Shown here piece by piece: positions 58 to 49,574 of a stretch of DNA of 64,000 nt. Source of the DNA: Escherichia coli (lineage in GTDB: Bacteria > Pseudomonadota > Gammaproteobacteria > Enterobacterales > Enterobacteriaceae). The notes under the pieces are model-generated. The model was not told the origin of the DNA and searched no databases. It was given only the letters and a program-made list of their open reading frames with translations. Position 1 is the first letter of the stretch; each line of letters starts with the position of its first letter. A program made the position numbers and the translations under genes. Location of the stretch: the NCBI RefSeq assembly GCF_041248615.1, contig NZ_CP158426.1; one strand, given 5' to 3'.

Positions 58-1146
58 TCACGGCAGGCGGTGGCGAGCTTGATAATAAGCCTGCCAGTGA
101 GCTTCTTTATGTGTGGCGACGCGCTGTTCGAAGTAACGGCGCAGACGCGCGCGATCTTCTTCGTTATCTTTAACGATGGTTCCGGCAATACAGTCCACCA
201 GGTCGGCAGGCTCCCCCGCGCGATTCGCTAAAAACCAGGCGCGGACGCCCACTGCGTGGGCCACGTTCACGGCTTCAGCGGTGGACATAATTGCCGTCAG
301 GGTATCCATTGACGTTTTCTTTTCGCCGTTGGCACGCAGATCGCGGAAGGTGCGGACCAGTAACTCCAGTACCGCGTCAGGCACTTTATGCGGAATACCG
401 CTATGGGCCAGCAAACGCGCCGAAGCACTGGCGACCAGTTCCAGCTCCTGGGCGAAATCCATAATCGGAAAGACGGTTTCAAAATCGAAGCGACGCTTTA
501 GCGCGGCACTCATCTCATTGACGCCGCGATCGCGGGTATTGGCAGTGGCAATAATATTAAAGCCTTCCCGCGCATAGAGCTGACTGGCTTCACCGGTGAG
601 TTCCGGCACCGTCATCACCCTGTCAGAAAGCATACCTAACAGACAGTCTTGTACTTCCAGCGGTGTACGTGTTATCTCTTCAAAACGGACGATTTTGCCG
701 TCGCGCATTCCCTGGTAAAGCGGGGCAGGGACCAGTGCTTCCGTTGACGGACCATGGTTGATAAGCAGGGCGTAGTTCCAGCCGTACTTGATTTGATCTT
801 CAGTAGTAGATGCGCCGCCCTGGATGGTTAACCCGGCATCGCCGCTAATAGCGGTTGCCAGTAATTCAGACAGGAGAGATTTTGCGGTGCCAGGTTCCCC
901 CACCAACATCAAACCGCGCCCGGTGGCAAGAGTGACTAACATACGTTCGACAGCGGAGGGACTAATCACCACTTTACGGCTAATATTTTGCGCTCTATCG
1001 CCAAGGATAAAAGCACGGGCCGCAGGCAAACTTAACTGCCAACCGGGCGGGCAAGGTGCGTTATCATTTTGTTTTAATTTTGCCAGTTCATCGGCGTATA
1101 ACACAGCAGCAGGCGGACGCTGCAGATGATTATTCTGCGGTGACAT
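58..1146 (-). CDS. yehL: MoxR-like AAA+ ATPase YehL
   Basis: ORF 58..1212. The internal Met at 1146 (MSPQNNHLQRPP) gives 362 aa. Walker A GEPGTAKS and Walker B-like IVRFEEITR are present. The 22-aa upstream extension was rejected. Confidence 0.9.
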   Translation of the reverse strand: MSPQNNHLQRPPAAVLYADELAKLKQNDNAPCPPGWQLSLPAARAFILGDRAQNISRKVVISPSAVERMLVTLATGRGLMLVGEPGTAKSLLSELLATAISGDAGLTIQGGASTTEDQIKYGWNYALLINHGPSTEALVPAPLYQGMRDGKIVRFEEITRTPLEVQDCLLGMLSDRVMTVPELTGEASQLYAREGFNIIATANTRDRGVNEMSAALKRRFDFETVFPIMDFAQELELVASASARLLAHSGIPHKVPDAVLELLVRTFRDLRANGEKKTSMDTLTAIMSTAEAVNVAHAVGVRAWFLANRAGEPADLVDCIAGTIVKDNEEDRARLRRYFEQRVATHKEAHWQAYYQARHRLP

Positions 1147-1255
1147 ATATTCATCCCTGAAATGTATTAATGAAATAAACGATATTTTACGCGCAATAAA
1201 TGTTTGGCGCATTAGTTGTTTGAGCGAAAAATATCTGGAAAGCAGATCACAGTAA

Positions 1256-1338
1256 ATAAAAAAACCTGCTGGTGAGGCAGGTTCTTTTATTTACTACAGT
1301 GACGCTAACTTGCTGATTGTGCAACATTTCGTACCAAC
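1256..1338 (-). ncRNA. Candidate antitoxin-type sRNA (divergent from the small ORF mRNA); ends are predicted, not measured
   Basis: Minus-strand promoter TTGCAA (1373-1368), 17 nt, TATAAT (complement of 1345-1350). Intrinsic terminator stem 1263-1269/1277-1283 followed by U5AU3. The first 17-18 nt are complementary to 1487-1504. Confidence 0.45.
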
Positions 1339-1344
1339 GAATAA

Positions 1345-1395
1345 ATTATAACCATATCCACACTCCATTGCAATTCAGTGAATGAGATTTATAAT
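1345..1395. promoter_or_regulatory. Back-to-back divergent sigma70-like promoters sharing a palindromic -35 TTGCAA
   Basis: Plus strand: TTGCAA 1368-1373, 16-nt spacer, TATAAT 1390-1395. Minus strand: the same TTGCAA, 17-nt spacer, TATAAT (complement of 1345-1350). Confidence 0.5.
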
Positions 1396-1576
1396 CCTGC
1401 CCGTTGGGAGGTTGTGCCGGATCGGACCAATTTTAAGTCCTGGCTGCTGGACGGGTGGTGCCGCAGGCGGTGCCCTGATCCGGAGAGCAACGTTTCGTAC
1501 CAACATACGTAAACCAGTATCGACAGGCAGTGTAAGGGTAAGGTGCTGGTGTTGCGCTCCTTAATAAGGAGAGCGG

Positions 1577-1666
1577 ATGGACACGCTGACACAAAAGTTA
1601 ACCGTGCTCATTGCTGTACTGGAGCTATTAGTGGCTCTGTTACGGTTGATTGATTTGTTGAAGTAA
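1577..1666 (+). CDS. Candidate 29-aa hydrophobic/amphipathic small protein (type I toxin-like)
   Basis: ATG 1577, TAA 1664-1666, product MDTLTQKLTVLIAVLELLVALLRLIDLLK. AGGAG at 1567-1571 lies 5 nt from the ATG and pairs with CUCCU at 1557-1561. Below the 60-aa cutoff of the ORF track. Confidence 0.45.
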   Translation: MDTLTQKLTVLIAVLELLVALLRLIDLLK

Positions 1667-1687
1667 CGGGCAAATTGAAACGCATCT

Positions 1688-1713
1688 AAGGGGGAATACC
1701 GTTTCCCCCTTTA
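1688..1713 (+). terminator. GC-rich hairpin terminator after the small ORF (also abuts the yehK stop)
   Basis: AAGGGGGA (1688-1695) pairs with TCCCCCTT (1704-1711), 8-nt loop, followed by TAATAAA. The U tract is short. Confidence 0.5.
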
Positions 1714-1719
1714 ATAAAG

Positions 1720-2025
1720 CTATTTTTCTATTTGTTGGTTGAATATATTTTGTAGTTCGCGATTAAAAATTGCTATTACAGTTTCAGGTGATTCACCTCG
1801 TAATTTTCGCTCATCAATAAACTCATCTCTTATATAAATCAACGCATCATTTATTAGCGGGTCAGCATCATTAAATGTTGGACGTAGCCGGAATCGTTCC
1901 AGTCGATAGACGGAACCTGTAAATAATTCAGAGCGTTTATGGATCTCAAGCCTGAAGGAAAACGGCTCTTCAGGTACAGGGGCCTCATAATCGTAAATAG
2001 TGATCAGCTCTTTTTGCACGATCAT
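1720..2025 (-). CDS. yehK: Small protein YehK
   Basis: 101-aa ORF directly downstream of yehI on the same strand; synteny. Confidence 0.8.
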   Translation of the reverse strand: MIVQKELITIYDYEAPVPEEPFSFRLEIHKRSELFTGSVYRLERFRLRPTFNDADPLINDALIYIRDEFIDERKLRGESPETVIAIFNRELQNIFNQQIEK

Positions 2026-2085: not shown

Positions 2086-5000
2086 TTAATGGAAAATGAC
2101 GTCGGGTGCGCTTAACGCCTCACTCAAATCAAACACATCAAGTTCGGCAAAAGTGACGGATTTATTCTCACGGTATACATGAAGAGAACGGAAGCTCATT
2201 AGCGCTTTGCTATCAACATTGTAGTGGTTAAAACCGGATGAAAACTTAAGGACCAGCCGGTACTCGCCCAAGTCATAGACAAATGCGTTCTCATAGCCTG
2301 ACTCCCAGCCTTTGTATCGCAATCCCATAAGTTGCCCAACGGTAGCAGATTTACCTTCCCAGCGATTCAAACTATTACTGGCTGACTCGTCAGGCGTGAG
2401 CAGCACCGTGCGGCGCGACAATTGGCGAAAAGGCGACATAATTTCGTAATCGGCAAAAAGCTGTGCAAATTCACTGCGCATTTCTGCTGTCATTTCTAAC
2501 GGGTGGGCAATGCCAATCAGAGCATCGGCAGGCAGGTCAATTGGCTCATCTTGCTCATTGCAGAACTCCCCCTCAGCGGCCACACGAAAGGCGTTGAGTA
2601 AACAACGCGGTTCATTTGCCGGATAAACACCCCATATCAATCGCTGAGTAACCAGGCGGGTAAAGGGATGATTAATAAACAGAGAATGAAAATCTGCCAG
2701 CGACCAGCGTCGGGTGGTGCGCAGGGCAGTTTCAAGACGCGGGAGCAGGTTTTTGCTCACCTGAGTAGCATCTTTTTTTAGCCCTTTTAGTCGGGCCAGT
2801 GCCTCGGGTGCTTTCAGTTGATCGTCATCGGCGCGCAACCGGGGAACGCTTTTCTGGCGAACGTTTTGCTGATCAAAGATAACCGGGTTGAGGTTTTCAT
2901 CGAAGCGAACGGTAAATTGCCGTGGACCAAAATCAAAAATCAACGCCTGCGGATCATCAAGACCCAGTGTTGGGACTAATCTGTCCGCTAACTGTTCCTG
3001 GCTTAGCCCGCGATTTTCTGCGACCACCTGAAGAAATTCCGCCGCGTTATCACGTAAGGGGCGGGATTTCGCCCGTTGCGATATATGATGCAGCTGCATC
3101 AGCGCCATATCATTATTCATCAGGGTAAGGATGTTCAGGCCACTGACAGCACGGGCAGATTTGCCTTCTTGTGGCCAGGCGAGGATCTGTGTCGTTAGAT
3201 CCCGTGTCGTGCTTTCGTCACCAAAGAGACTTAACGCCAGAAATGCCCAGTTGTCTTTTGCGGGGGCACCAGCTTGTTGCCACGCAGTGAAGAGATCCCA
3301 GGCAAAAGCTGCCAGCGTTTGTGGCTGGCAGAACGTTTTCAGTTGTTCCAGCCCGCTATAAAAACGTCCGCCTTGGGTAAAGCGCAGCATTTCGCCGATA
3401 ATTTCCAGAGCGTCATCGGTAACAGGCTGATTATTTGTGATAAGGCGCGGCCTGGACCGCATTTGCGGCTGCCAGAAATCAGGGGCTTTTGGAATGCGTG
3501 TCGGGTAAATCTCTATTGGACTCTGTTTAAGTAATTGCTCCAGGGCAGGCCATACATCTGTACGCTGCCAGCGGTTTGCCACGGTTTGCAGTAACTCGCC
3601 ATGTCCCTGTTCGTAAAGTAAACGCAGGGCAAGTAATGCAGCTTCGCTATTATCGCTGGATTTGGTGAAGACAAGAGGGATAAGTGCAGTAGCTGTATGT
3701 TCCGGCCAATGTAAAATCCACTGGCGAGCCAGATCACGCTGCGCCGCGAAACGTCGCCAGACGCGGGCAACGGGCAGGGCCAGTTCTGTTGCGCCAAAAT
3801 TTAAAATTAACGGAAATGTTTCTTTTGGACGATGTGAAAAAGCCAACAGCAGACCTGGTAGAGCATCCAATCCGAAGATACTGAGAAAATAGTCCTCACC
3901 CGCAGACAGATGCTTTTTCTCATTGATACGTAGCCAGAAAGTCAAAGCCATCTCACGCGGCAACTGCGCCAATAAATACAGGTTCCAGATACTCTTTTCC
4001 CGACGATAGCGTGAGTAGCTGTCATTTTCCCATATGTTAATGAACACTTCTACGTGACCGTTGCGAAGCGCCTGTTCTGCTAATTGAGCTTCCGGGGAGC
4101 TCCAGCCATTCATGATCTCTTCAACCCGCCCTGGGTAGTAATGCCACTGAACAATGAGTGAATTGCGTGCAGCATCCAGTTTTCCGGGGAGTATATAATT
4201 CAAAAACAGCCATACATCATCTCCAAAACCCAGCTCCTGTAATACAACTCGTCCACTTTTTTGTTCCATGCGTTCCGCAAGAGATTCCGTGCTGAAATAA
4301 CGGGCAGACTCAGTGGCGGCAAGCCTCTCTTGTTCGCCTGGTTGCCAGTAAACTTGCGGGGTTAATTCGAGCGGTGCCAAATCAAGACGTGGAGCTGTCA
4401 TTTTTTTCTTACTACGCCACGGTGGTGAAACGAGGATTTCAGGCAGATTGCTGTTATCGGTGCCATCAATAACCGGTTTGGGCGGTGCCGATAAATAACT
4501 ATTCAGCACTGCCCGGGCTTGAGTACTTAACCACGGCATCACTTCTGCTGCCAGTTGTGGCTGCGATGCCATCAGCGTTTGTAACAGCGTACGCCAGTAT
4601 TCATCACGTGCTTTTTGCTGTGCAGGCAGCTTTTTGTCTTCGATGATTGGATAACCAGGGCGCGTAGGTGGTTCTTTTAGCGCCAGCAGTTCTGCCAGTG
4701 CGGCAAGCGTCGCATGGGGGAAATTTTTACTGTATTTAGCTACACGTTGCAGGCTGGGTTTGTTTTTATCAGCAACTAACAGCAGGGTGCGGATGACCTG
4801 CGGATGGTTAATTTGTACCAGCAGACTGCCGCAATCTTCTTTATGGGCATACATTGCCAGGCGTGGAACGGCTGCCAGTCCTTGTTCGCGCAAAAGGGCA
4901 GCGCAGGCCGCGTAGCCGAAGTGGTTTTCATGCGACATGTAGCTGGCTTCCCGATCGCTAAATATATCCTGGCTCCAGTAGCGTTCGAGTTTTCTCACCG

Positions 5001-5718
5001 CTCTGGGGTCAATAGCAACAACTTTTAACCACTCCTTAGAATGAAAATGAGTCCACGGGCATTCAAGGCTTACCAACTCATTGGCGATTTCTGGTTTTTC
5101 CGGGAGGATCAGAGCAATAAAAGGGCGGCGAACTTTGGTTATTCCTGGCAGTGCGGCAATGAGTTTGTCGGCGCAACGCTGCCAGCTGCTTTCCTCTGCC
5201 AGAGAGAGATGCTTACGCAGTCGGAGATCGAATTCGTTATAGGTTTCTGATCGATAACCATAGCCATAATCCTCGTTCTGATACTGCAATGTCACTAGCA
5301 GAGGATCACTTTCATAACATCGTGTAATAAACTGGCGTGCAATCACCACCTCAGTCGCATATTCCAGTCCCTCTTGTTGGACGATTTCGTCGAGCAACTG
5401 TTGGCTATCATTTTGCGCGATACAGGCTAGCGCCGCCATTGTCCGGGCCGGAACTGAGGGTTTGTGTTCGCCAATCAAGTTGATGGCCTGCGTAATGGCC
5501 GACTGCCACTCCAGTGAAAAATTATCATAACGCCAGACAATGTTTTTTTTCTTCTCAGCTTTTTGTAGCAATTCATCACCCAGTGTCTGGATGAGGCTTT
5601 CAGTGATAACAGGCACCGGTTCGCCCGGCCAACTGCGATGGCTGAGCGGCGTTTTGCCTTTTTTATATTTCAGTTCCACTTGGGCGTTATCCGCCAGCCA
5701 CGGTAATTCCTTGTCCAT
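2086..5718 (-). CDS. yehI: Large uncharacterised protein YehI (DUF4132-type C-terminus, paralog of MolR)
   Basis: 1210-aa ORF. Long collinear similarity to the next ORF, e.g. RLRKHLSLAEESSWQRCADK vs RLRKHLALAEETLWQRCVDK and FGPRQFTVRFDE vs FGPRQFTVSFDE. Confidence 0.9.
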   Translation of the reverse strand: MDKELPWLADNAQVELKYKKGKTPLSHRSWPGEPVPVITESLIQTLGDELLQKAEKKKNIVWRYDNFSLEWQSAITQAINLIGEHKPSVPARTMAALACIAQNDSQQLLDEIVQQEGLEYATEVVIARQFITRCYESDPLLVTLQYQNEDYGYGYRSETYNEFDLRLRKHLSLAEESSWQRCADKLIAALPGITKVRRPFIALILPEKPEIANELVSLECPWTHFHSKEWLKVVAIDPRAVRKLERYWSQDIFSDREASYMSHENHFGYAACAALLREQGLAAVPRLAMYAHKEDCGSLLVQINHPQVIRTLLLVADKNKPSLQRVAKYSKNFPHATLAALAELLALKEPPTRPGYPIIEDKKLPAQQKARDEYWRTLLQTLMASQPQLAAEVMPWLSTQARAVLNSYLSAPPKPVIDGTDNSNLPEILVSPPWRSKKKMTAPRLDLAPLELTPQVYWQPGEQERLAATESARYFSTESLAERMEQKSGRVVLQELGFGDDVWLFLNYILPGKLDAARNSLIVQWHYYPGRVEEIMNGWSSPEAQLAEQALRNGHVEVFINIWENDSYSRYRREKSIWNLYLLAQLPREMALTFWLRINEKKHLSAGEDYFLSIFGLDALPGLLLAFSHRPKETFPLILNFGATELALPVARVWRRFAAQRDLARQWILHWPEHTATALIPLVFTKSSDNSEAALLALRLLYEQGHGELLQTVANRWQRTDVWPALEQLLKQSPIEIYPTRIPKAPDFWQPQMRSRPRLITNNQPVTDDALEIIGEMLRFTQGGRFYSGLEQLKTFCQPQTLAAFAWDLFTAWQQAGAPAKDNWAFLALSLFGDESTTRDLTTQILAWPQEGKSARAVSGLNILTLMNNDMALMQLHHISQRAKSRPLRDNAAEFLQVVAENRGLSQEQLADRLVPTLGLDDPQALIFDFGPRQFTVRFDENLNPVIFDQQNVRQKSVPRLRADDDQLKAPEALARLKGLKKDATQVSKNLLPRLETALRTTRRWSLADFHSLFINHPFTRLVTQRLIWGVYPANEPRCLLNAFRVAAEGEFCNEQDEPIDLPADALIGIAHPLEMTAEMRSEFAQLFADYEIMSPFRQLSRRTVLLTPDESASNSLNRWEGKSATVGQLMGLRYKGWESGYENAFVYDLGEYRLVLKFSSGFNHYNVDSKALMSFRSLHVYRENKSVTFAELDVFDLSEALSAPDVIFH

Positions 5719-5727
5719 GCTCTTTCC

Positions 5728-8700
5728 TTATTCAAACAGGGCTTCAATATCGTTAATGAGTTCGCTGGCGGTGATGTCGTCGAGCACGGAGAACTGCGCT
5801 TCCTGAGTTGAATTACTCCCCCAGCCATAGCTTTCCGCTTTGCCTTCCCATAGCCACAGCTTGCTTAAGACCTGCTCAGCGCTAAGATCGGCTGGTGACA
5901 TACCCACCGCAAAACCTTCGTCGATTTCCATGATTAACGACCAGCGACCGAGAGGTTTGATCATCCATCCGATCCAGCCTCCATCCTGTGGTTCGCCCTT
6001 TATCCAGCCTTTATTTGCCAGCCCCATGACCCGGCCGCTCGGGCATTTTCTGCCTGCCCAGCGGGTCAGTTCGCTGGCGTTGCGCTCGGCTTCTGTCAGG
6101 GCGTAACTGTTACGTTCAAGCTGACGGAACGGTGGTAGCAGTTCGTAGTCGGCAAAAAGCTGACCAAAGGCGACAGCATCCGTCGGTGATATTTCCAGAA
6201 CGTGAGGAATGCCGATAGAGATATCGCCTTCCTGCAAGGTGAAAAGATCATCGTCAGCGGTGCTGTAGCTGTTATCTTCCGCCACCCTAAAGCACGCCTG
6301 TAGCTGGTTTTCGGCGCTATAAACGCCCCAAATCAGACGGCGGGTTAAGTGACGAACCAGCGGATGCTCAACCAGGAAGAGCTGAAAGTTTTCCGGCGAC
6401 CAGCGGCGGCGCAGGCACATGGCGGATTCCAGCCTTGCTACCTGCTGGGCGGCGACGGTACGCGCATCTTTTTTCAGCAATTTGTAGCGGTTAACAGCAT
6501 CGTTTGCCTGTGATTCATCATCGCTTTTATTGGGTTTAGGTAAGTCTTTCAGGCGGCTGCCGGAAACATCGCGCACAAACGGTTTTAAGGTTTCATCAAA
6601 GCTGACGGTGAACTGCCGTGGGCCAAAATCCAGCAGCAGCGAACCGTTATCATCCAGACCGAGATCCGGTGCTAACCGGTCTTCAAGCTCCGGCACCGTG
6701 AGTTCGCGGCTCTCGGCAATGTCGGCAATTTTCTCTTTCGCCCGCTCCTGTAAGGCTTTGAATTTCAGTTTCTGGGCGATGCCGTTAAGCTGCATCAGGG
6801 CGATATCGCTGCCGATAGCGGCGAGAATATCCAACCCAACGGTGGCACGTTTATGCTGAGATTCGCCAGGCCAGGCGCGGATTAATGGCGTCAGTTTGCG
6901 GGCGGTGTCATCGTTACCGAGAACGCCTAACGCAGTGAACGCCCAACTTTCTTTCGACGGCGCGCCAGCGGTCTGCCAGGCGGTAAACAGATCCCAGGCA
7001 AATTCAGCCAGTGAGTCGGCGGTACAGGCATCTTTCACCTGCAATAATCCCGGATACAGCGCCTCCTCCTGATGGAAGCGGAGCATTTCACCGAGGTGGA
7101 GGAGGGCGCTATCTGGCAGTGATTGGGCATTTGCTTTTAATACCGGGCGGGTCCAGATCGATGGCTGATAAAAGGCCGGAAGAGTGGGGATTTTTGTCGG
7201 GTGATTATCTAAGGGATCGAGCGCAAGCATAGCGTTCACCGCATCTGTTACTTCCGGCTGGTTATAACGCCGGGCGATTTCTTGCAGTAATGGCTGATGA
7301 TCGTTTTCGATAAGCATACGCAAGGCAGCGCGGGCGTTATCCTGGGCTTCACCGGCTTTGCCGAGCGCCGCAGGCAGTAGGCCGGTAATGGCGTGTTCCG
7401 GGTATTTCAGCAGCCAGGTGCGGGCGTCTTGTCGTAGGGTTTTGAGTTTGTTGAAGGCGCGGGCGATCAGTGGCGCTAATTCGATAGCCGCAAAATATTG
7501 TGCTACAGGCAGAGCTTCTTGTGGATAGCGTGAAAAGGAGTGAATAAAACCCTGTAACCCAGCGAGTTGCAGGTGCGTCATGACAAACTCGACACCGACG
7601 TGTGGCTCTTTACTGAGGACATTCCACGCCTGCGCTGTTTTTTCGATAGGCAGGGCGGCTAACATGTAAAGCTGCCATTCCCGTTGATAGGAGTGCCAGA
7701 AGGTTTTAAATTCGCTGATTAGCGCAGAATAATCTCCCCTCTGCCAGAGTTCTACAACAGCATCAGACGCTTTCATATACTGGCCATTATTCCAGCGATT
7801 GAAACCCAGACGTGTCAGGTAGTTCTGAATATCCTCTTTTTGGCCGATGTCTATTTGATGTGCGTGCCAGCGATGCCTTGCATGAATCTCTTTTTCTGCC
7901 GTCTCGGTCAATGTGCAGCATGACTCCAGCGGTAATGGCGTTAAATCCAATACCGGCATTACAGATTTTTTCTTTTTCGAAAGCCAGGGCGGTGAGACTA
8001 ATACGGCAGGCAGCATATCGGCGCTGGCATGGTTTGAGGGCTGTGTCAGTTGTTGCTGGCATGATTTCAGCACTGCAACTGCGGGTGTTGAGAGCCAGGG
8101 AGTGACCTGTTCTGCTAGTGCCGGTTGCGAGATAAGCATCGTCATCAGCATAATGCGCCAACTATTCTCTTCTTTTTGCGCAAGAAGTTCCGCCAGTGCA
8201 GCCAGTGCTGCGTGTGGGAACGCAGCGCAAGCCTTAGTCATTCGTTCATGGCAGCGTTTAGTTTTGCCAGACACACGTATAAGTAGCATTAATGCTTGTG
8301 GGTGATTGATCTCTTCGAGAATACTTCCACAAAGATCAGCATAAGCATAGGGGGCGAAGCGAGCGATTCCGGCAATCCCTTGCTCCTGCAAAACGGTGAC
8401 ATTCCAGATGCAACCATGGTAATAGTCATTAAAAAGGTCGTACGCGCAATAAGATTCCAGCGCTTTGAGTAAGAAAGATTCTTGAACAACAAGTTTCAGC
8501 CATTCAACAGTTTGGACATTTTTCTGCTTCAGTAACCGTCGTGCGACTTCTTCTGCAATCTCCGGGCGTTCCGGTAGCATTAGCGCTACCATCGGTTGTT
8601 GAACGGGAGGAATATCAGGTAAAGCTGTAATGAATTTATCTACACAGCGTTGCCACAAAGTTTCTTCTGCAAGAGCCAAATGCTTACGCAGTCGAACGTC

Positions 8701-11782: not shown

Positions 11783-12892
11783 ATGAACGAACAATCCCAG
11801 GCCAAATCACCAGAAGCCTTGCGCGCAATGGTCGCCGGGACACTGGCCAATTTTCAGCACCCAACCCTGAAGCATAACCTCACCACGCTGAAAGCGTTGC
11901 ACCATGTCGCCTGGATGGACGACACGTTGCATGTGGAACTGGTTATGCCATTCGTCTGGCATAGCGCGTTCGAAGAGTTAAAAGAGCAATGTAGCGCCGA
12001 ACTGCTGCGCATCACCGGGGCGAAAGCTATCGACTGGAAACTGTCGCACAATATCGCCACCTTAAAACGCGTGAAGAATCAGCCGGGAATTAACGGCGTG
12101 AAGAACATCATTGCGGTCAGCTCCGGTAAAGGCGGCGTGGGTAAATCTTCCACGGCGGTAAACCTGGCGTTGGCACTCGCGGCGGAAGGGGCGAAAGTCG
12201 GCATTCTGGACGCCGATATCTACGGCCCATCAATCCCCACCATGCTGGGCGCAGAAAATCAGCGTCCAACTTCGCCGGACGGTACCCATATGGCACCGAT
12301 TATGTCTCATGGACTGGCAACCAATTCAATTGGTTATCTGGTCACTGACGACAATGCGATGGTGTGGCGTGGTCCGATGGCGAGCAAGGCGTTAATGCAG
12401 ATGTTGCAGGAAACCTTGTGGCCGGATCTCGACTATCTGGTGCTTGATATGCCGCCAGGCACCGGTGACATTCAATTGACACTGGCACAAAACATTCCAG
12501 TAACTGGCGCGGTAGTGGTCACCACCCCGCAGGACATTGCGTTGATCGATGCGAAAAAAGGCATTGTGATGTTCGAGAAAGTCGAGGTTCCGGTGCTCGG
12601 TATTGTCGAGAACATGAGTGTGCATATTTGCAGTAACTGTGGTCACCATGAACCGATTTTCGGTACCGGTGGTGCTGAGAAACTGGCTGAAAAATACCAC
12701 ACACAGCTGCTGGGGCAGATGCCGTTACACATCTCCTTACGTGAGGATCTCGATAAAGGCACGCCAACGGTTATCAGCCGTCCGGAGAGCGAATTTACCG
12801 CTATCTACCGCCAGCTGGCTGACCGCGTTGCAGCTCAGCTCTACTGGCAGGGTGAAGTCATTCCAGGCGAGATTTCCTTCCGCGCGGTCTAA
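11783..12892 (+). CDS. mrp: Fe-S cluster carrier ATPase Mrp/ApbC
   Basis: ORF 11753..12892, start taken at MNEQSQAK (369 aa). P-loop SGKGGVGKS and CxxC (CSNCGH) are present. Confidence 0.93.
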   Translation: MNEQSQAKSPEALRAMVAGTLANFQHPTLKHNLTTLKALHHVAWMDDTLHVELVMPFVWHSAFEELKEQCSAELLRITGAKAIDWKLSHNIATLKRVKNQPGINGVKNIIAVSSGKGGVGKSSTAVNLALALAAEGAKVGILDADIYGPSIPTMLGAENQRPTSPDGTHMAPIMSHGLATNSIGYLVTDDNAMVWRGPMASKALMQMLQETLWPDLDYLVLDMPPGTGDIQLTLAQNIPVTGAVVVTTPQDIALIDAKKGIVMFEKVEVPVLGIVENMSVHICSNCGHHEPIFGTGGAEKLAEKYHTQLLGQMPLHISLREDLDKGTPTVISRPESEFTAIYRQLADRVAAQLYWQGEVIPGEISFRAV

Positions 12893-20519: not shown

Positions 20520-20599
20520 AACCAAACGACTCGGGGTGCCCTTCTGCGTGAAGGCTGAGAAATACCCGTATCACCTGATCTGGATAATGCCAGCGTAGG
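20520..20599 (+). repeat. attL: 80-bp direct repeat, a copy of the thiM TPP aptamer/thi-box lacking the 3' P1 strand and expression platform
   Basis: Base-for-base identical to 33185-33264. Flanking bases differ on both sides. Preceded by native rcnR-thiM intergenic sequence. Confidence 0.9.
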
Positions 20600-20684
20600 T
20601 TGCCAACATTCTGATTAGTATTCATGTGGTTACATTTCTTTTTGTCCGTGTGTAATGCACCTAATGTACAAAAAGAGCGTAAAC

Positions 20685-21986
20685 ATGAGGTACAAAACTC
20701 TTCCATACACGTTTCAAAGAAACGGTAATTACTATCTACAGATTCGGCTTTCGAATGGTCGGATGTATAAAAAATCACTTCTCACTGACAGCTATCGTGA
20801 AGTCTCTGCTTTGATGATTGGTGTTGCTCCGTACATTCCTTTTGTTAAATCATTAGCCATCACAATCCCGATGTTTGATGCCTTTGTTTCAAACCTGATT
20901 ATGTCAAAACTTAGGGCTGTAAAAGTTCCGCTGCTATCACATCAGTCGGTAATTACCCCTGCTACATTCGAGGAACCAGCGACACAAGCCGAACCGCAAA
21001 ACATGCTAACTCTTTCTGATGCGTGGGCTATGTATAAAGCGGAAAAGGGTAAAACATGGACAAAGTCGATCTCAAGGGCGAATGAGCGTTACATGGAAGT
21101 CTTGATGGTTGTCTTGGGAGAGACAACTGACGTAGTTGCGATTTCTAAGCAGGACATCAAGCAGGTGATGGAAGTTGTTGAGAATTTGCCTAAGCGTGTT
21201 GTCCAACCGTATCGCTCAATGAACATCCAGCAACTGATTGAATGTGATGATGTATCACCGAATGAGTTAGTAGGAGTGGAAGCCATTCATAAGCATCTCA
21301 AAATCTACAAATCGCTTTTCAAGACTTTTCTAACAGAAAACAAAGATATTTTGATTAAATCCCCAACTGATGGGGTAGTAGCAGCACCATCTAAAGCAAG
21401 GTTTGGAGCATACAGTTCGGCGGAGATGAAGAAGTTTGTAGAGTGGGCACTTAAGCAGCCAGATGGCTGGCAGAAGTGGATAACATTGTTGTTGGCATAC
21501 ACAGGAGCCAGAAGGGGAGAAATTGCCAAACTGGAAAAATCACAAATAAAATATGATGAGGATAGCCATCGGTATTATTTCCTGATTGCAGAAGGAGGGC
21601 AGGGGAAAACCGAAAATGCTACCCGACAAGTAGTGATACACCCTAAGTTGATCGAATGGGGTTTCATGGAATACGTTGATCGCCAGTGGAAAGAACGGAT
21701 TTTTTCAGAAGTGGCTGGTACAAACATGACGAAGATCGGTAAAGAATTTGCTGATGTGCGTGACCAGCTTGACATTCCGTACTTAGACGATTTTGGACAG
21801 CGGAGGCTTTTGCATAGCATTCGTCATTCTGTTTGCTCTACTGCGATGGCTGGATGGGTAAAGAACATCTTGCATCTGCAACAAACAGTAGGCCATGAGA
21901 AAAGTGGAGGGATCACTAAACGCTACTTACATACGTTCCCACTATCATCAATTTGTTATGTTATTGATGGGATTAGTTGGGTCTGA
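20685..21986 (+). CDS. int: Tyrosine site-specific integrase
   Basis: ORF 20655..21986, likely start MRYKT at 20685. Catalytic signature ARRGEIAKL (Arg), GKTENATR (Lys), HSIRHS (His-x-x-Arg), GHEKSGGITKRYLH (Tyr). Confidence 0.85.
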   Translation: MRYKTLPYTFQRNGNYYLQIRLSNGRMYKKSLLTDSYREVSALMIGVAPYIPFVKSLAITIPMFDAFVSNLIMSKLRAVKVPLLSHQSVITPATFEEPATQAEPQNMLTLSDAWAMYKAEKGKTWTKSISRANERYMEVLMVVLGETTDVVAISKQDIKQVMEVVENLPKRVVQPYRSMNIQQLIECDDVSPNELVGVEAIHKHLKIYKSLFKTFLTENKDILIKSPTDGVVAAPSKARFGAYSSAEMKKFVEWALKQPDGWQKWITLLLAYTGARRGEIAKLEKSQIKYDEDSHRYYFLIAEGGQGKTENATRQVVIHPKLIEWGFMEYVDRQWKERIFSEVAGTNMTKIGKEFADVRDQLDIPYLDDFGQRRLLHSIRHSVCSTAMAGWVKNILHLQQTVGHEKSGGITKRYLHTFPLSSICYVIDGISWV

Positions 21987-22203
21987 AACTGCTAAGAATG
22001 ATAGGAAAAGCTACTTAATGATCCTTAGTTTTGGATGAAATTGAAGATTACAAAGATCTTGAGCGAATAAGAGCGTTTTTTAATCAAAAAAGCCATAAAA
22101 ACTTTTCTTGACTGTATATTAACACAGTGCTTCTACTATGTAGAAGAAATCGACATGAAAAATTTGATATGGTAAATTTTATCCATGATAACAAAAAGGT
22201 ATT

Positions 22204-23106
22204 GTGGATATGTTACTACCAATACGAGTTCATAAACGATTTCTAACTTTATTTAAGACTTTGCAAATTGACGATTGCCCACCGCAATCAACTTTAAATA
22301 TTCATGTACTTAATATCGAAAGCAATGAATTTATATACTGTAAATTAGTTGAAGAATTACGTGACATAATAATTACTTATGTACATTCGAATAGAAGGCT
22401 TGAGGAGTTTAAGGAAAGTTATCCTTCGTATAGCCCTAAACCTTTTTTCGAAGCAATACAAAAATTTCGCAATTATACGTCAAACGAAGGTGAGTTAGGT
22501 GAACTGCTTTTATACGCTTTTCTTGAAACAGGACTAAATGCTCCGAAATTACTTTCCAAAATGCAATTGAAAACAGATTCTAATGATTACATTAAGGGTT
22601 CTGATGGTGTACATCTGTTAGAATTAGATGATGGTTATCAATTAATATTTGGAGAATCAAAGCTCTATGCCGATCTTTTAGAAGGTGCTCGAGAAGCGTT
22701 TGATTCTATTTTAGATTTTAAAAGTAATGGAATGGCATTTGAAAGAGGGCTGATAGATACACACGTTATAAATGAAATGGTTTCAGAAGAAGGTTATGAG
22801 AAAATAAAATCAATTCTTCTTCCTTCTTCTGGCGATGATGGGCCAGATCTTGATTTATCCTTTGGTATATTTCTTGGTTTTGAATTGAAAATAGATAGCT
22901 CACAGTTATCATTGAAAAACAAAGAGTTTAGAGATTGGGTTAATGAGTCCGTGAAACAACATGCTACTCGCGTGGTCAGTACGATACGAAGGAAAATTAT
23001 TAATCATAAATTATATGGTCACGAATTCCACATATATATAGTTCCTTTTACCGATATTGATGTTACACGAAAAAAATTAATTCATGAAATGCTAACAATT
23101 AAGTGA
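22204..23106 (+). CDS. hamA: HamA-like protein (DUF1837-type PD-(D/E)xK nuclease fold) of a Hachiman-type system
   Basis: 300 aa (GTG 22204 or ATG 22210). Motifs EGELGELLLYAFLE (~aa 95-108), GSDGVH (aa 132-137), GESK (aa 150-153). Overlaps the next gene by 4 nt. Confidence 0.7.
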   Translation: MDMLLPIRVHKRFLTLFKTLQIDDCPPQSTLNIHVLNIESNEFIYCKLVEELRDIIITYVHSNRRLEEFKESYPSYSPKPFFEAIQKFRNYTSNEGELGELLLYAFLETGLNAPKLLSKMQLKTDSNDYIKGSDGVHLLELDDGYQLIFGESKLYADLLEGAREAFDSILDFKSNGMAFERGLIDTHVINEMVSEEGYEKIKSILLPSSGDDGPDLDLSFGIFLGFELKIDSSQLSLKNKEFRDWVNESVKQHATRVVSTIRRKIINHKLYGHEFHIYIVPFTDIDVTRKKLIHEMLTIK

Positions 23107-25691
23107 ACACTATGAATGAATTAAATTCAAGTAAAAACATTCATTTGGCAGCTCGTCTTGCAGATGATGCTTTTGAAAGTGCTTATTTTAAAGAAATCAA
23201 TAAGTTTATAAGTGGTTTATACAATTACAGTTTATTTAACTGCGATTCAGATGTTAGTCTCTCCGAGAGTGATAACAATAAAATAGCACACGCTTTGCGT
23301 TTTGCAGATATATTTTCACATTCTTCAAAAGAAAATCATAGATCATGTGCATTTGAAATTATAAGTAGAATAGCCTTATTAAAAAAACATGATCCTTATT
23401 TTAAATTTATAGGTACTGCTGTTATTAATCGGCTTGGGGTTTATGCAGCAGAAAAACTCATATCAAAAGGGGTAAAATTACCCTTAGATAGAGAAGTTGA
23501 TTCTATTATTAAAAAATCAGTTCAGAAAACAGATGAAGATGGAGTATATTTCACTGATAAACAACATGAGTTATACAAACTTTTAAAAAGTAGCAAAACA
23601 ATTAGTTTTGCTGGTCCCACTTCGATGGGAAAGTCATTTGTTATTAATGCATACATTAAGGAAATAACTCTTAAAAAAGAGCTTAAAAATATAGCTTTAA
23701 TTGTTCCTACACGGGCTTTAATAAGCCAAAATGCACTTAAGTTAAAAATTGATATTGCATTGTATAAGAATGAAAGCCCTTATAAAGTTGTTACGACATC
23801 CTACATTATTAATGGTGATGAAAGTAAAAATAAAGGCTATATTTTTATTCTCACCCCAGAAAGGCTGGTTAGTCTCATAAGCACTATTCCTGGACTAATG
23901 ATTGATTATGTTTTTGTAGATGAAGCTCAAAAGTTAACAACAAAAAATGATTCGAGGAGTCTTGTTACTTATTCAGCTATAGAGCAAACAATTAGTAAAA
24001 ATCCTGAGGCAAGATTATTCTTCTCTTCACCTAATTTATCTAATCCTGAAATATTTAATATTTTGTTTGATAGAAAAGACGCTTCGGTATATAGAAATAC
24101 AGAAGGTGCAACTACTCAGAATATGTATTTTATTGATCTTTTAAATAGCAGCTTTAGCTATGTTAATACCGAGAAAAGGACGCTTGAAAAAATAGATGAG
24201 ATCTCTAATACTTACACGAATACAAATGATGTTATCTATAAATTAAATAATGGTAAAAGTAAAATAATTTATTGTGGGGGGATAGAAAGCACGCTTGAGA
24301 GAACACGTAGCTTTATCAATTATCTCAAAATTAATAAGAAAAAAAGAAAGCATTTAAATTTAGAAATATCTTCTGAGATAAGAAACTTTGTTCATGATAA
24401 CTATGAACTTGCAGAAGCCATCAACTATGGTGTTGCTTTCCACTTTGGAAACTTGCCTCAATCGATTCGAGATTTAATTGAGCATCATTTCAAAATAGGA
24501 AATATTGACTATCTATTCTGTACATCAACCCTACTTGAGGGAGTCAATTTACCTGCAAGATCCGTATTTATTCTTACGCATAAAAAAGGCCCCAGTCCAT
24601 TAGAGTCGGTTGATTTTTGGAATCTGGCTGGGAGAGCTGGGCGATTATCTATGGAATTGTCAGGGGATATTTTTTGTATTAGGGATGATAATAAGCTTTG
24701 GAATAAAAAAGCTGTTGATAATATCCTTCTGTCTGACAAAAATAACATTTCATTAAAGCCAAGCTTCTATATTGAAGACGAAAAAAGATTGAACGATTTA
24801 CACCATATAATTACGACTGGTAAAACAGGGAATATTAAAAATGCTGAGTTCCTTAGAACTTTAGGAGATATGATAAGAATAGACACTCTGAGGGATTCTA
24901 AAGAACTTCCTCTTATTAGTTATTTCCAAAGCAGTGGAAAATCAGAAATTTTGTTAAGTGCAGAAAAAAGCACTGAAAATATTACCATGCCAATGAATAT
25001 CCTTTTGGCAAATAGTCATATTGCGATTGATTCGCAGTATCATGCTTTTAAAAAAATAAAAAGCCTTACAGTTAAGGAACTGAAATTATCATGGCAGCCT
25101 ACATACGAAGAAATTAAAGAAAAATTGAATTTGATATTCGATATTTACCAAGTTGAAAAGTTTGCAACAGGTAGAGAACGTCTTTATTTAAATTCAATTC
25201 CATATTATGCAGTATTACTGTTTCAATGGATTCGTGGAAATAGTCTACAGGAAATTATCTCGGGGGCAATTGCTTATAGAAAGAACAAAAGTATATATAT
25301 TAAAAATACACCTGTTCTTTTTGACAGCGAAAACCCAGCTCATTTAACTGCATTAGTTAATGAAACTATAAAAGACATTGAGTTGCGTGTAGGTTACCAG
25401 TTACAAAATTATTTTTCACATTACTGTCAGCTTCTGAATTATGTGTTACAAGGAAATCCAGGGGCAAACTGGTCTCAGTTCATTGAGTTTGGCTCTAATG
25501 AGCCAATAGTATGGCACCTACAAATGATGGGCTTTTCAAGGGATAGTGCAGTTTTTCTCAAGAAGAATTTTTCAAAACATCTTAAACTTGATAATGAAAT
25601 GAATAAACTCATCATAATGGATAAGGAACTGATCAAGCGTTCTTTCAAAAAAGATGGACTACATTACTTAGAAATCCAATCGTTATTATAA
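23103..25691 (+). CDS. hamB: HamB-like SF2 helicase of a Hachiman-type system
   Basis: 862 aa (GTG 23103 overlapping the hamA TGA, or ATG 23112). Walker A GPTSMGKS (nt 23613-23636), motif II DEAQ (nt 23919-23930), motif VI-like AGRAGR. Confidence 0.75.
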   Translation: MNTMNELNSSKNIHLAARLADDAFESAYFKEINKFISGLYNYSLFNCDSDVSLSESDNNKIAHALRFADIFSHSSKENHRSCAFEIISRIALLKKHDPYFKFIGTAVINRLGVYAAEKLISKGVKLPLDREVDSIIKKSVQKTDEDGVYFTDKQHELYKLLKSSKTISFAGPTSMGKSFVINAYIKEITLKKELKNIALIVPTRALISQNALKLKIDIALYKNESPYKVVTTSYIINGDESKNKGYIFILTPERLVSLISTIPGLMIDYVFVDEAQKLTTKNDSRSLVTYSAIEQTISKNPEARLFFSSPNLSNPEIFNILFDRKDASVYRNTEGATTQNMYFIDLLNSSFSYVNTEKRTLEKIDEISNTYTNTNDVIYKLNNGKSKIIYCGGIESTLERTRSFINYLKINKKKRKHLNLEISSEIRNFVHDNYELAEAINYGVAFHFGNLPQSIRDLIEHHFKIGNIDYLFCTSTLLEGVNLPARSVFILTHKKGPSPLESVDFWNLAGRAGRLSMELSGDIFCIRDDNKLWNKKAVDNILLSDKNNISLKPSFYIEDEKRLNDLHHIITTGKTGNIKNAEFLRTLGDMIRIDTLRDSKELPLISYFQSSGKSEILLSAEKSTENITMPMNILLANSHIAIDSQYHAFKKIKSLTVKELKLSWQPTYEEIKEKLNLIFDIYQVEKFATGRERLYLNSIPYYAVLLFQWIRGNSLQEIISGAIAYRKNKSIYIKNTPVLFDSENPAHLTALVNETIKDIELRVGYQLQNYFSHYCQLLNYVLQGNPGANWSQFIEFGSNEPIVWHLQMMGFSRDSAVFLKKNFSKHLKLDNEMNKLIIMDKELIKRSFKKDGLHYLEIQSLL

Positions 25692-25771
25692 AACTGCCGA
25701 ATCAGAGTCTTTTATTGATTCTGATTCGCACTTATATAGTTAAATCAAAAGGAGCATTAAAATTTTTCAGT

Positions 25772-25795
25772 AGCGATTTAGTATGCTAAATCGCT
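25772..25795. terminator. Strong hairpin between the convergent hamB and recombinase genes
   Basis: 10-bp perfect stem AGCGATTTAG/CTAAATCGCT with a TATG loop. There is no clean U tract, so its function as a terminator is uncertain. Confidence 0.35.
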
Positions 25796-25999
25796 GCATA
25801 ACGAATCTGCTTCTAAATCTTGATTAAGTGTTTCGAACTGCCTTGATTGTTTATTGCTACACTTTATAATTAATCGCAACACACAAAACAATACAATGTA
25901 GGCAGTTGCACAGAATTAATTACAGGCACATTATGGATATCGAGAGGATTCGAACAGTTTTAAACTGCAAGCCCTTTGACTTTATCCCCTCCTACTATA

Positions 26000-26575
26000 T
26001 CAGCGTTTGATGCCGCTAATACTGGCAAGCATTTCTTTCTTCACACGAAAAACTGTAGCCCTGCCGCAATCACATAACTTTGCTATCTCGTCTGGTGTAT
26101 TCTTCCCGGCCTGTAACATATCGATAATCTTGTTATGTAGCTCTTTGTTCTTTTGCTTGCCCTTGTACTTCTTAGCCTCTTTAGCAAGAGCAATCCCCTC
26201 ATTGCGACGAGATGCGATCATACCCCGCTCAAATTCTGCAGCGGCTCCCATCATGGTTAGGATAAGGCGTGATTGTGGGGAATTATCAAAACTCATAGAG
26301 TTTGCAAGGAATTGAACAGTGATTCCACGAGCCACGAGGTTATCAATCATTTCCAGCAAATCGCGGGTATTACGTGCAAGGCGATCAATCGAGTGAGTAA
26401 CGAGCGTGTCACCTTCGCGGAGGTGTGAAAGCAGGTTCAACAATTCAGGTCTTTCGCTGGTGGACTTACCTGATTCTTTCTCTGCCACAATTTTGTCACA
26501 AACAGGTTCCAGCACTGCCAACTGACGCTCAAGATTTTGATCCTTTGTTGAGACTCTCGCGTAACCAAAAATCAT
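26000..26575 (-). CDS. Serine recombinase (resolvase/invertase family)
   Basis: 191 aa. N-terminal MIFGYARVSTKDQNLERQ (catalytic Ser) and a C-terminal HTH (TPDEIAKLCDCGRATVFRV). Confidence 0.88.
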   Translation of the reverse strand: MIFGYARVSTKDQNLERQLAVLEPVCDKIVAEKESGKSTSERPELLNLLSHLREGDTLVTHSIDRLARNTRDLLEMIDNLVARGITVQFLANSMSFDNSPQSRLILTMMGAAAEFERGMIASRRNEGIALAKEAKKYKGKQKNKELHNKIIDMLQAGKNTPDEIAKLCDCGRATVFRVKKEMLASISGIKR

Positions 26576-26600
26576 TTTCCTGCCCTCACTTACGTGAAAA

Positions 26601-26664
26601 GTATCATTTGAATTTACTTAATGATACAGTATCATTTAAATGCATTCAACATCTAAATGATACT
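26601..26664. promoter_or_regulatory. res-like recombinase binding sites upstream of the serine recombinase gene
   Basis: Inverted GTATCATT (26601-08)/AATGATAC (26620-27) and AGTATCATTTAAAT (26628-41)/ATCTAAATGATACT (26651-64). That is four copies of one half-site. Confidence 0.55.
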
Positions 26665-27082
26665 AAACGAGACGAGAAAAGCGAGTATCGTTAGGGAGTA
26701 CCCAAAAGAGATTTTTGATCGTGCGTTTTTTAGTCAATGTAGGGTTAGTGAAAAGTTCAGTACCGAGATCTGAGTTCACGGCATTTTGTCGACGGGGTTG
26801 AACCTGATTAGGCGAACGAGATTTTAAATCAGGCGGAATAAAACAAGTTGTACTTTTATCTGAGTAAAAGATCCCTTTAACTTTTTAGTCAGAAATCGTG
26901 ATACTAGGGGTTTGGTTATTTTGTGTCCTTAAGGCCAGTACTTTTAGCGAGGACGAAAAAACGGCCTACATGAGAACGCTTACAGTAACTTAAGTATATT
27001 ATCCAAAAAGTCACTTAACTTAAATCAATTTGGATGCAAAATCGCCACACTTTGCAAGTGAACACATACCGGGCAACAAGCA

Positions 27083-27109
27083 AATAAAAAAGGCCACTTT
27101 CGCGACCTT
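27083..27109 (-). terminator. Intrinsic terminator of the membrane/periplasmic two-gene operon
   Basis: Minus strand AAGGUCGCGAAAGUGGCCUU followed by UUUUAUUU, 17 nt after the stop at 27126. Confidence 0.7.
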
Positions 27110-27125
27110 GTACCAGTACAAACAC

Positions 27126-27485
27126 TCATTCAGAACGATCAAGTACCATATATGCTGGCTGACACATGCTGCCCCGCTCCTGTAGCCAGTAGTAATCAAG
27201 ATCGGCAACACGCACGTCCAATCCAGAATCTACACGGTTGATCTGTAACCGTAGCCCTACAGTATCCTTGTACGATAAACCAGATTTAACATTGTATTTG
27301 TACTTAACACCGTTTTCCTGTTCAAACTGTTTAAGGAAAGGCGTCATTTGTTTCTGAATTTCTTTCAAACAAATAACCTCATTATCAATAGCAAAGGGGG
27401 GTTCTGTTTTTCCATCAGGTACAGCAGCCTGTAAATGAAAGGAAGTACTCAACAATAACAGCATTGCAACAGAAGTCTTTTTCAT
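27126..27485 (-). CDS. Small exported protein of unknown function
   Basis: 119 aa. Sec signal peptide MKKTSVAMLLLLSTSFHLQA|AVP. Lies 43 nt downstream of the preceding gene on the same strand. Confidence 0.7.
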   Translation of the reverse strand: MKKTSVAMLLLLSTSFHLQAAVPDGKTEPPFAIDNEVICLKEIQKQMTPFLKQFEQENGVKYKYNVKSGLSYKDTVGLRLQINRVDSGLDVRVADLDYYWLQERGSMCQPAYMVLDRSE

Positions 27486-27528
27486 TTTAATTCCTTATTA
27501 AAGAACAGTACATTATATTTCAATGGAC

Positions 27529-28569
27529 TTAATAACAATATTTTATATTTCCTTCGGGTTTTCTCATGCATTTAATTCCTTCAGGAATATAATCAGTTAC
27601 GGGAGCAGGTCTGGCATCAGGTCTTGAAAGACGATTGGATATAGAAGACAACAGACTGAAAACACACTCATTAAATGATTTTTGATATTTATTTTTTTCA
27701 TAAAAGTACTGCATGGTGATTTTATCTCTTTCGTATTGCAATTCTTTGCCAAGCTGAATCCTATCCATATCAATTCCATTTCTCATAGCATTAAATCTTT
27801 CGTTCAATAAATTAAATTGAGATTTATTCCATTCATTTAAAGGAAATAAAGAATTGTTAAGCCTTTGCCTACAATTAGATTGCTCGATAGCTGACATGTA
27901 TTCTTTCATACTAACGCCAATATCTAAGTATGTGAGTTGTCCAGCAGTTCTATCAACTGAGTTATTAGGGTAAGATTTAATTTCAGTAAGTATTGACTCT
28001 GTTAATACTGCATTTTCTTCTAAATCTTTGCTAATAGTTATTTGAGCTTGTTCTCTTTTATCCTTATCAAATATTGAAATGTATTTCTTTACTATATCCT
28101 GATTAGCTTTCTCGGCTGCTACTAACGCATCTTGAACCTTCTTTTCCGCCGCTTTAACTCGTTGTTCTTCTACAAATTTCGCGTAGTCATCAGTATTTGT
28201 AATGTGATTTTCACGAGCGATAGAAAACTCTTTACTATCTTTAAAACCAAGTTTTTGTGCTCTGGCTCCATCGCTTGAAGATCGGGCAGAACTTGCCACG
28301 AAAGCGAGCACAATGATCAGTACAGGAACCGTATAATTATTAACGAGTTTATAGGGTAAGAACTTCGCTTTAAGCGTACCATAACCCAAAACAGCCCAGC
28401 CTATCGCGGCAGTACTTGCCAGTAGCTGGCACAATCCAGCGACGGAAAGCATGATTACCGACCAGAAGCCTGTACCGACTGCGAAAAGATCACCAAATTT
28501 CTCCATTGACGCAAGGAATAAAAACACTCCCCAAATGCCATAAAATCCTATTTTCAAATATTTACTCAC
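27529..28569 (-). CDS. Inner-membrane protein (about 3 N-terminal TM helices plus ~240-aa soluble/coiled-coil-like domain), unknown function
   Basis: 346 aa, GTG start with AAAGGA upstream. Hydrophobic segments IGFYGIWGVFLFLASM, FWSVIMLSVAGLCQLLASTAAIGWAVLGYG and VPVLIIVLAFVASSA. Confidence 0.7.
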   Translation of the reverse strand: MSKYLKIGFYGIWGVFLFLASMEKFGDLFAVGTGFWSVIMLSVAGLCQLLASTAAIGWAVLGYGTLKAKFLPYKLVNNYTVPVLIIVLAFVASSARSSSDGARAQKLGFKDSKEFSIARENHITNTDDYAKFVEEQRVKAAEKKVQDALVAAEKANQDIVKKYISIFDKDKREQAQITISKDLEENAVLTESILTEIKSYPNNSVDRTAGQLTYLDIGVSMKEYMSAIEQSNCRQRLNNSLFPLNEWNKSQFNLLNERFNAMRNGIDMDRIQLGKELQYERDKITMQYFYEKNKYQKSFNECVFSLLSSISNRLSRPDARPAPVTDYIPEGIKCMRKPEGNIKYCY

Positions 28570-28789
28570 CGCAATTATCCTTTAATAATTTTCCAAATCG
28601 ATGGTTCGTTCTATTTGTATTATCGACAATAATTCGTTTGCCTTTAGGTAGATCCCTTAAAAAGGAATCCCCCCAAAATTTATAGATTAGCAGTTGTACC
28701 ACTCTCACTGTTTTGTCACTCCCATTATCTTCTCTCAGGTCAAAAGTACGGACTTAAAGCCGTCCGTGTTCAGGTGCTCAAGAGTAGCA

Positions 28790-28900
28790 CGCATATCAAT
28801 AAATGATCGATAAAAACGATCAATTAATGGCTTATTGATCGCTATAACCTATCAATGACTATTAATTCAATACAAATCAATAGGTAAAATCGATCAAGAG
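28790..28900. repeat. Iteron-like cluster of (G)ATCAAT/GATCGA motifs with several GATC sites
   Basis: ATCAAT at 28795, 28851 and 28876; CGATCAAT at 28817; TTGATCG at 28835; GATCGA at 28805; CGATCAAG at 28891. All lie within an ORF-free tract. Confidence 0.45.
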
Positions 28901-31028: not shown

Positions 31029-31370
31029 TCCAGTGTCTGGCCTTTCGTTGTTTTAGTTATTAGTCTTTTTGAGTTGCGACAACTGCAAGAGAATGTTTAT
31101 AAACAAGTGAAATAAGCAGTTTTACCGCCTCAAAAGCTACAGTCAGTTTCGTAATTATTTTCGAAAGCATCGTAAATTTCACTTCGCTATCTTCTATGCA
31201 AAAATTAGCAGCCTGAGGTATTTAATGATTGAGATGTGGCCTGTTGATAAGAGGGTTTGTATTGCTTGTTCTGCTCTTTGTTAATTTGTGACTTATTCCT
31301 TTCACAATGATCGGCTATGTTTGATAACTCTGTTAGGAAATCACCTATGGCTACCATATTGGATTTGCCC

Positions 31371-49540: not shown

Positions 49541-49574
49541 GAAACGGATGATAACCTTAATAAATGCAGCTGTA

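Follow-up and report, generated by a model that had tools for sequence, protein, structure and literature searches.

The zor-orz loci are type I toxin-antitoxin modules of Escherichia coli that were described by Fozo et al. 2010 (PMC2887945) as z3289/z3290, located between yehI and yehL in E. coli O157:H7 EDL933. Wen et al. 2014 (PMC3919570) gave them the new names zorO-orzO and zorP-orzP and demonstrated toxicity and rescue. ZorO is an inner-membrane helix by which the membrane is depolarised, its mRNA has a 5' UTR of 174 nt (Wen et al. 2017, PMC5397157), and published Northern blots show the sRNAs at about 85 nt. The first 18 nt of OrzO are enough for repression and specificity is set by the V1 triplet at +9 to +11, which is GAA in OrzO and ACG in OrzP (PMC3919570). 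Structure probing placed the RBS in a stem in both forms of the mRNA, and the EAP (+73 to +102) was found to be protected in the full-length RNA and exposed once the first 28 nt were gone (PMC5397157). OrzO binds the 3' part of the EAP, with a translation block and RNase III-dependent decay as consequences, and the published in vitro translation and probing agree with blocking of a standby site (PMC5397157).

We analysed a 64,000-nt stretch of E. coli DNA (contig NZ_CP158426.1), referred to below as the window, in which a spacer of 573 nt lies between homologues of yehL and yehK and contains all the zor-orz elements reported here. The reading we favour, to which we assign a probability of about 0.97, is that this spacer is one intact unit of the published zorO-orzO toxin-antitoxin locus and that the mechanism worked out in EDL933 carries over to it. 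While EDL933 is described as having zorP-orzP and zorO-orzO in tandem in a 1.2-kb spacer, the window has a single O-type unit with yehL and yehK as its immediate neighbours, the one feature that sets it apart. The EDL933 locus (z3289/sRNA-1) and the window have in common the ZorO peptide, the promoter boxes, the 174-nt UTR, the RBS hairpin, the EAP, the 18-nt OrzO seed (V1 = GAA) and the chromosomal site. Our analysis established the sequence elements, the identity of the peptide and of the sRNA family, the predicted structures and the covariation of the pairing partners. Nothing in the sequence speaks against the zorO-orzO identity, and every sequence criterion examined assigns the locus to the zor-orz family. 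Its features are as follows.

58-1146, minus strand: yehL homologue, at the start of the window
1254-1338, minus strand: orzO sRNA gene, about 85 nt (Rfam match, fold, published Northern bands of about 85 nt)
1263-1283, minus strand: orzO intrinsic terminator hairpin (stem and U5AU3, the complement of 1254-1262)
1321-1338, minus strand: OrzO 5' pairing region (seed), GUUGGUACGAAAUGUUGC, 18 nt (sequence)
1345-1350, minus strand: orzO -10 box TATAAT (read on the complement strand; 17-nt spacer)
1368-1373, both promoters: shared palindromic -35 box TTGCAA (promoter scan)
1390-1395, plus strand: zorO -10 box TATAAT (16-nt spacer)
1403-1424, plus strand: 5' segment of the zorO mRNA predicted to pair in cis with the EAP (minimum-free-energy fold)
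1403-1576, plus strand: zorO 5' UTR, 174 nt (inferred start to the ATG at 1577)
1475-1504, plus strand: EAP, a putative ribosome standby region, +73 to +102 (repeat finder, fold, published data)
1481-1486, plus strand: Shine-Dalgarno-like GGAGAG in the EAP (sequence)
1487-1504, plus strand: OrzO target GCAACGUUUCGUACCAAC, within the EAP, +85 to +102
1557-1571, plus strand: RBS hairpin (CUCCUU pairs with AAGGAG, 3-nt loop)
1577-1666, plus strand: zorO ORF, 29 codons and TAA (peptide identical to published ZorO)
1688-1711, plus strand: probable zorO 3' terminator hairpin, AAGGGGGAA/UUCCCCCUU, with the weak U tract UUUAAUAAA (fold)
1720-2025, minus strand: yehK homologue, 88% identical to K-12 YehK
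2086-5718, minus strand: yehI, beyond yehK

Genes and promoters of the yehL-yehK spacer

The zorO ORF translates to MDTLTQKLTVLIAVLELLVALLRLIDLLK, which matches letter for letter the ZorO string given in PMC6669753. Scans of the 29-amino-acid peptide against Pfam and NCBIfam returned no family even at E <= 10, a result that is uninformative on function, a peptide of this size being too short for such libraries. On the opposite strand the Rfam OrzO-P covariance model (RF02083) matches nucleotides 1258-1331 with 88.8 bits (gathering score 60; E = 6e-15); the match spans model positions 1-76 of 76 and is the only one of its kind in the window. The V1 triplet of this RNA is GAA, and the sRNA is therefore of the O type. 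Its 5' end was placed at 1338 on the basis of the promoter and of the published primer extension in EDL933. The resulting 85-nt RNA folds with -24.7 kcal/mol (z = -3.5) and terminates at the stem AACCTGC/GCAGGTT (1263-1269/1277-1283), which is followed by TTTTTATTT on the minus strand; the inverted repeat I1 found at this terminator has 19-nt arms that are 95% complementary.

A promoter scan identified exactly the two promoters listed, each conforming to consensus at 10/12 positions. Divergent genes with a common TTGCAA as -35 and a TATAAT -10 each are characteristic of the zor-orz family, and according to a published survey the -35 TTGCAA is kept in 99.4% of the loci, the orzO -10 in 99.8% and the zorO -10 in 100%. 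A search for the LexA box CTGT-N8-ACAG, allowing up to one mismatch, found none in the promoter region 1340-1400; the nearest match, and the sole one nearby, lies inside the orzO body at 1284-1299. The hairpin at 1688-1711, as modelled in the fold, is the probable terminator of the zorO mRNA; it was not called by the terminator scan because its T run is short.

The position of the locus on the chromosome, from yehI/yehK to yehL, is that of the zor-orz family. The yehK allele of the window codes for 101 amino acids and has a 5-residue deletion, K-12 YehK having 105 amino acids; its product has no Pfam match, and its counterpart in E. coli ST2747 carries the RefSeq label "hypothetical protein".

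Examination of 30 sampled genome matches to nucleotides 1213-1719 showed that RefSeq/PGAP has no feature under the match in 29 of them, and the sole feature listed is an ORF at the yehK position that overlaps the end of the match. At the corresponding place in ST2747 (6001-6507 in its extracted locus) the locus tags jump from RS14540 to RS14550, with one number missing. The locus is known already from the literature and from Rfam, and it is only from the RefSeq gene tables that zorO-orzO is absent. The initial annotation of this DNA, which was made from the sequence alone, knew of no annotated gene here because zorO and orzO are unannotated in RefSeq; its presentation of the locus as hidden does not stand, nor is the locus new.

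Structure and pairing of the two RNAs

The fold of nucleotides 1403-1713 has a free energy of -113.3 kcal/mol (z = -2.6). In the minimum-free-energy structure nucleotides +1 to +22 pair with +74 to +102, which corresponds to the published EAP region, and CCGGATC (1417-1423) and GATCCGG (1477-1483) are part of this first helix. The 5' segment 1403-1424 falls inside the 28 nt (1403-1430) that are absent from the published translationally active form. When these 28 nt were removed in silico the mean unpaired probability of the EAP rose from 0.31 to 0.41, a modest change whose direction agrees with the probing data. The EAP sequence CCGGAGAGC is a near-copy of the true RBS AAGGAGAGC (direct repeat D3) and corresponds to the conserved GGAG(T/A)G motif, which a 2024 survey reported to be required for full toxicity. 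At the RBS itself +155 to +160 pair with +164 to +169, leaving the Shine-Dalgarno sequence with an unpaired probability of 0.01.

The pairing region of OrzO and its target form an 18-nt direct repeat (1321-1338 and 1487-1504) that was the top family returned by the repeat finder. The two copies differ by one A/G, which is why the duplex contains one G-U, and including this G-U the first 18 nt of OrzO form 18/18 pairs with zorO mRNA +85 to +102. The O unit of a two-copy strain has this G-U as well, at pairing position 13, and it is therefore not a defect. The target ends 72 nt before the zorO ATG and lies 62 nt upstream of the Shine-Dalgarno sequence; the published criterion is a complementarity of no fewer than 15 continuous or 17 discontinuous nt located 72-92 nt upstream of the ATG. 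When three mismatches at most were allowed, the 18-mer did not occur anywhere else in the 64-kb window. A duplex of the first 30 nt of OrzO with the leader has -34.0 kcal/mol, compared to -18.8 +/- 2.7 for shuffled sequences (best shuffle -30.7), while RNAduplex applied to the full-length RNAs produced an over-extended and uninformative duplex (-61 versus -44 +/- 4 kcal/mol for shuffles). The Rfam match, the confinement of the 18-mer to these two sites and the energy of the 30-nt duplex place the locus far outside chance expectation.

This architecture had been read correctly by the initial annotation, all six of whose elements are present where it had placed them. It had pointed to the 29-codon ORF, to the pairing of AGGAG (1567-1571) with CTCCT (1557-1561) that sequesters the Shine-Dalgarno sequence, and to a TTGCAA-16 nt-TATAAT promoter (1368-1395) with a foldable leader of about 175 nt, found here to be 174 nt, in which CCGGATC pairs with GATCCGG. 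It had also proposed that the palindromic TTGCAA acts as the -35 of a divergent promoter, that this promoter directs an sRNA of about 83 nt ending at the terminator with its hairpin and U5AU3, here about 85 nt and matched by Rfam, and that the 18-nt repeat brings the 5' end of the sRNA to the leader 72 nt upstream of the ATG. Its inference of a trans-pairing type I toxin-antitoxin module is supported and coincides with the experimentally established zorO-orzO architecture, and RNA folding and duplex prediction returned the cis helix, the RBS hairpin and the OrzO-leader duplex.

Toxicity of overproduced Zor and its rescue by the cognate Orz were demonstrated in EDL933 with a peptide and a seed identical to those of the window. 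Taken together with this and the other EDL933 work, from which the processing, the expression and the involvement of RNase III are likewise carried over by analogy, these elements suggest the following mechanism. Two sigma-70 promoters would diverge from the one palindromic -35 box between them. The plus-strand product would be a zorO mRNA of about 310 nt with a 174-nt leader that holds translation low by two brakes: the Shine-Dalgarno sequence would be enclosed in its local hairpin, and the first 22 nt or so of the mRNA would be paired with the upstream EAP/standby region (+73 to +102). Loss of the first 28 nt would free the standby region, and more of ZorO, an inner-membrane toxin of 29 residues, would then be translated. 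The minus-strand product would be OrzO, an sRNA of about 85 nt whose first 18 nt, upon binding +85 to +102, would block the standby site and ribosome loading and lead to RNase III-dependent decay.

Distribution and covariation of zor-orz units

E. coli ST2747 (NZ_CP007394.1) has an identical spacer (100%). Of 5426 complete E. coli genomes, 3393 contain 80% or more of the spacer, and 273 match its full length at an identity of 99% or above. Among the matches listed, the lower-ranked ones extend over no more than the first 221-224 nt of the query, which comprise orz and the promoter region, in agreement with a published survey in which about 30% of the genomes are "orz-only". Of the assemblies in that survey, 25% had a single full copy and 42% had two.

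For comparison we assembled 16 units from 11 records in addition to the window. As the two-copy comparator we used a cattle isolate, strain 131, which has the P-O arrangement of EDL933; for EDL933 itself published descriptions were used. The O unit of the cattle isolate is identical to that of the window in the sRNA body and in the pair of 18-mers, and differs from it at one position between the zorO -35 and -10 and at one UTR position, by two synonymous substitutions in the ORF, and in the flanks. A further strain carries P, O and Q units, in that order. The zorP-orzP and zorQ-orzQ units share the architecture of the O unit and are about 90% identical to it in DNA, and their peptides are the same or almost so, whereas the core of their 18-mers is unlike that of the O type, with matching changes on both partners that make the pairs orthogonal. 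Cognate 18-mers form 18/18 pairs in the O type and 17/18 in the P and Q types; all six non-cognate combinations reach 14-15/18 pairs in runs of up to 8, which falls short of the published requirement (15 continuous or 17 discontinuous pairs). The ORF has 29 codons in 14/14 complete units, which differ mostly by synonymous changes, of which there are several; the amino-acid variants are T3S and Q6R. The initial annotation had named covariation of the two 18-mers, presence or absence of the spacer across E. coli and interruption of the ORF in homologues as informative comparisons: the covariation is seen over the three types, presence varies among the complete genomes as given above, and no complete unit has an interrupted ORF.

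The yehK-yehL spacer of K-12 MG1655 (12291-12596 in the extracted locus) contains an orphan gene of the orzP type with both promoters kept, a zor leader that is truncated soon after its start, and no toxin ORF. This orphan has been published and is expressed as OrzPmg (PMC11264685). An exact 28-mer over the RBS and ATG was found, among species-representative genomes, only in Shigella flexneri, Escherichia whittamii and two further Escherichia species; an exact 28-mer is blind to diverged relatives, and therefore this result does not limit the taxonomic range. A search of the S. flexneri locus by regular expression did not find an intact orz side. E. whittamii, which is outside E. coli proper, has a two-copy locus including a P-type unit with the Zor Q6R variant (MDTLTRKL...).

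Other parts of the window also contain small RNAs and mobile DNA. Three tandem Sib antitoxin RNAs, each scoring 141-146 bits with Rfam SIB_RNA, are located at 62892-63697 on the minus strand and point to a set of three ibs-sib units of type I; the counterpart locus of K-12 has two, sibA and sibB. An ordinary CyaR/RyeE sRNA is found at 49457-49542 on the minus strand (100.7 bits). An island of about 12.7 kb (20520-33264) is inserted in the thiM TPP riboswitch. The direct repeat at its borders (20520-20599 and 33185-33264) is exact over 80 nt and comprises most of the riboswitch aptamer, both aptamer copies reaching the Rfam TPP gathering score with 58 and 71 bits. Next to the left copy are a tyrosine integrase (20655-21986) and then a Hachiman defence pair consisting of HamA (22204-23106, Pfam E = 1e-62) and a DEAD/ResIII helicase (23103-25691), and the right copy is upstream of ORFs of the sizes of thiM and thiD (33318-34903). 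Among 5426 complete E. coli genomes, no more than 55 have the integrase junction. The riboswitch may be an integration site that is rebuilt by the inserted element.

Alternative readings and promoter symmetry

The initial annotation had described the locus as tisB/istR-like, a description that stands for the mechanism and fails for the family. Both systems code for a 29-amino-acid membrane toxin and have a divergent sRNA whose 5' end acts on a standby region far upstream (about 70-100 nt before the RBS) rather than on the RBS, which is structured, and in both the mRNA is activated through 5' processing; the original authors likewise compared zor-orz to tisB-istR and to shoB-ohsC, and we regard this as a likeness of mechanism, not of descent. 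On these grounds the locus could have been a member of the tisB/istR-1 family and hence an SOS-induced persistence module. However, BLASTP of ZorO against a TisB sequence entered by hand gave no alignment even at E <= 100, the zorO promoter region 1340-1400 is devoid of a LexA box, and the sRNA belongs to Rfam OrzO-P and not to IstR. In addition, no tisA-like leader ORF has been noted for zorO, and the full-length zorO mRNA is still weakly translatable. Membership in the tisB-istR-1 family is refuted by these data, and we give the SOS-module reading practically no credence. The shoB-ohsC system is also a divergent type I pair with a limited 5' complementarity of 18-21 nt, which zorO-orzO resembles in how it works, but its toxin and its sRNA family are different, zorO-orzO is not a member of it, and OhsC represses zorO only when it is given the OrzO seed.

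Two other readings accept the descent of the locus and question its function. One is that the window carries a silent relic, zorO-orzO by descent, of which the single copy is unexpressed or no longer functional as a pair. The loss of zor with retention of orz alone in about a third of E. coli genomes tells us that the toxin is dispensable, and PMC9860968 reports no aminoglycoside phenotype for a single chromosomal zor copy, for which no phenotype is known to be published. Against this, the promoters, RBS, ORF, pairing region and both terminators of the window are intact and match the functional features of EDL933, and in the published survey more than 99% of full loci keep their expression signals and pairing potential, which makes a relic very improbable. 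It is also conceivable that OrzO serves mainly another purpose, for example the regulation of other mRNAs, and that repression of zorO is secondary. The retention of orphan orz genes, their promoters intact, by about 30% of E. coli, the expression of OrzPmg in MG1655 (PMC11264685) and the orzP-like orphan that we confirmed in the K-12 spacer would fit such a role. The orphans of the published survey, however, are nearly all of the P type and not of the O type, no second target is known, and in each of the O, P and Q types the seed has changed together with its cognate zor target, which shows selection on toxin-antitoxin pairing; we consider a different main role of OrzO unlikely, if less so than a relic.

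The promoter arms of the locus (1305-1436) are similar as mirror images, with an alignment score of 5 compared to -9.4 +/- 4.2 for shuffled sequences, a score reached by 2 of 2000 shuffles. The orzO and zorO transcripts both open with GUUGG followed by ..UUG.GC, and both pair with the conserved EAP flanks GCAAC ... CCAAC. The variable core of the target faces an internal loop in the cis helix and is fully paired in the trans duplex. Tentatively, OrzO and the cis 5' "lock" of the zorO mRNA could be paralogues that arose from an old inverted duplication around the -35 box; part of the arm similarity comes from the common TATAAT and GTTGG, and for that reason paralogy is only a modest possibility. 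A search of the zor-orz literature, which was not exhaustive, did not find this relationship stated. If it were true, the cis lock would be independent of type and the trans lock would be type-specific (O, P or Q).

As a discovery the locus carries little weight, its existence, mechanism and population distribution all being in print. The absence of zorO and orzO from the RefSeq/PGAP gene tables leads to their repeated "rediscovery" by users of those tables. That the letters alone sufficed to reconstruct a type I module already validated by experiment, including UTR length, sRNA length and pairing site, can be taken as a useful positive control. With its single O-type unit, the window is an example of the less common arrangement of these loci.
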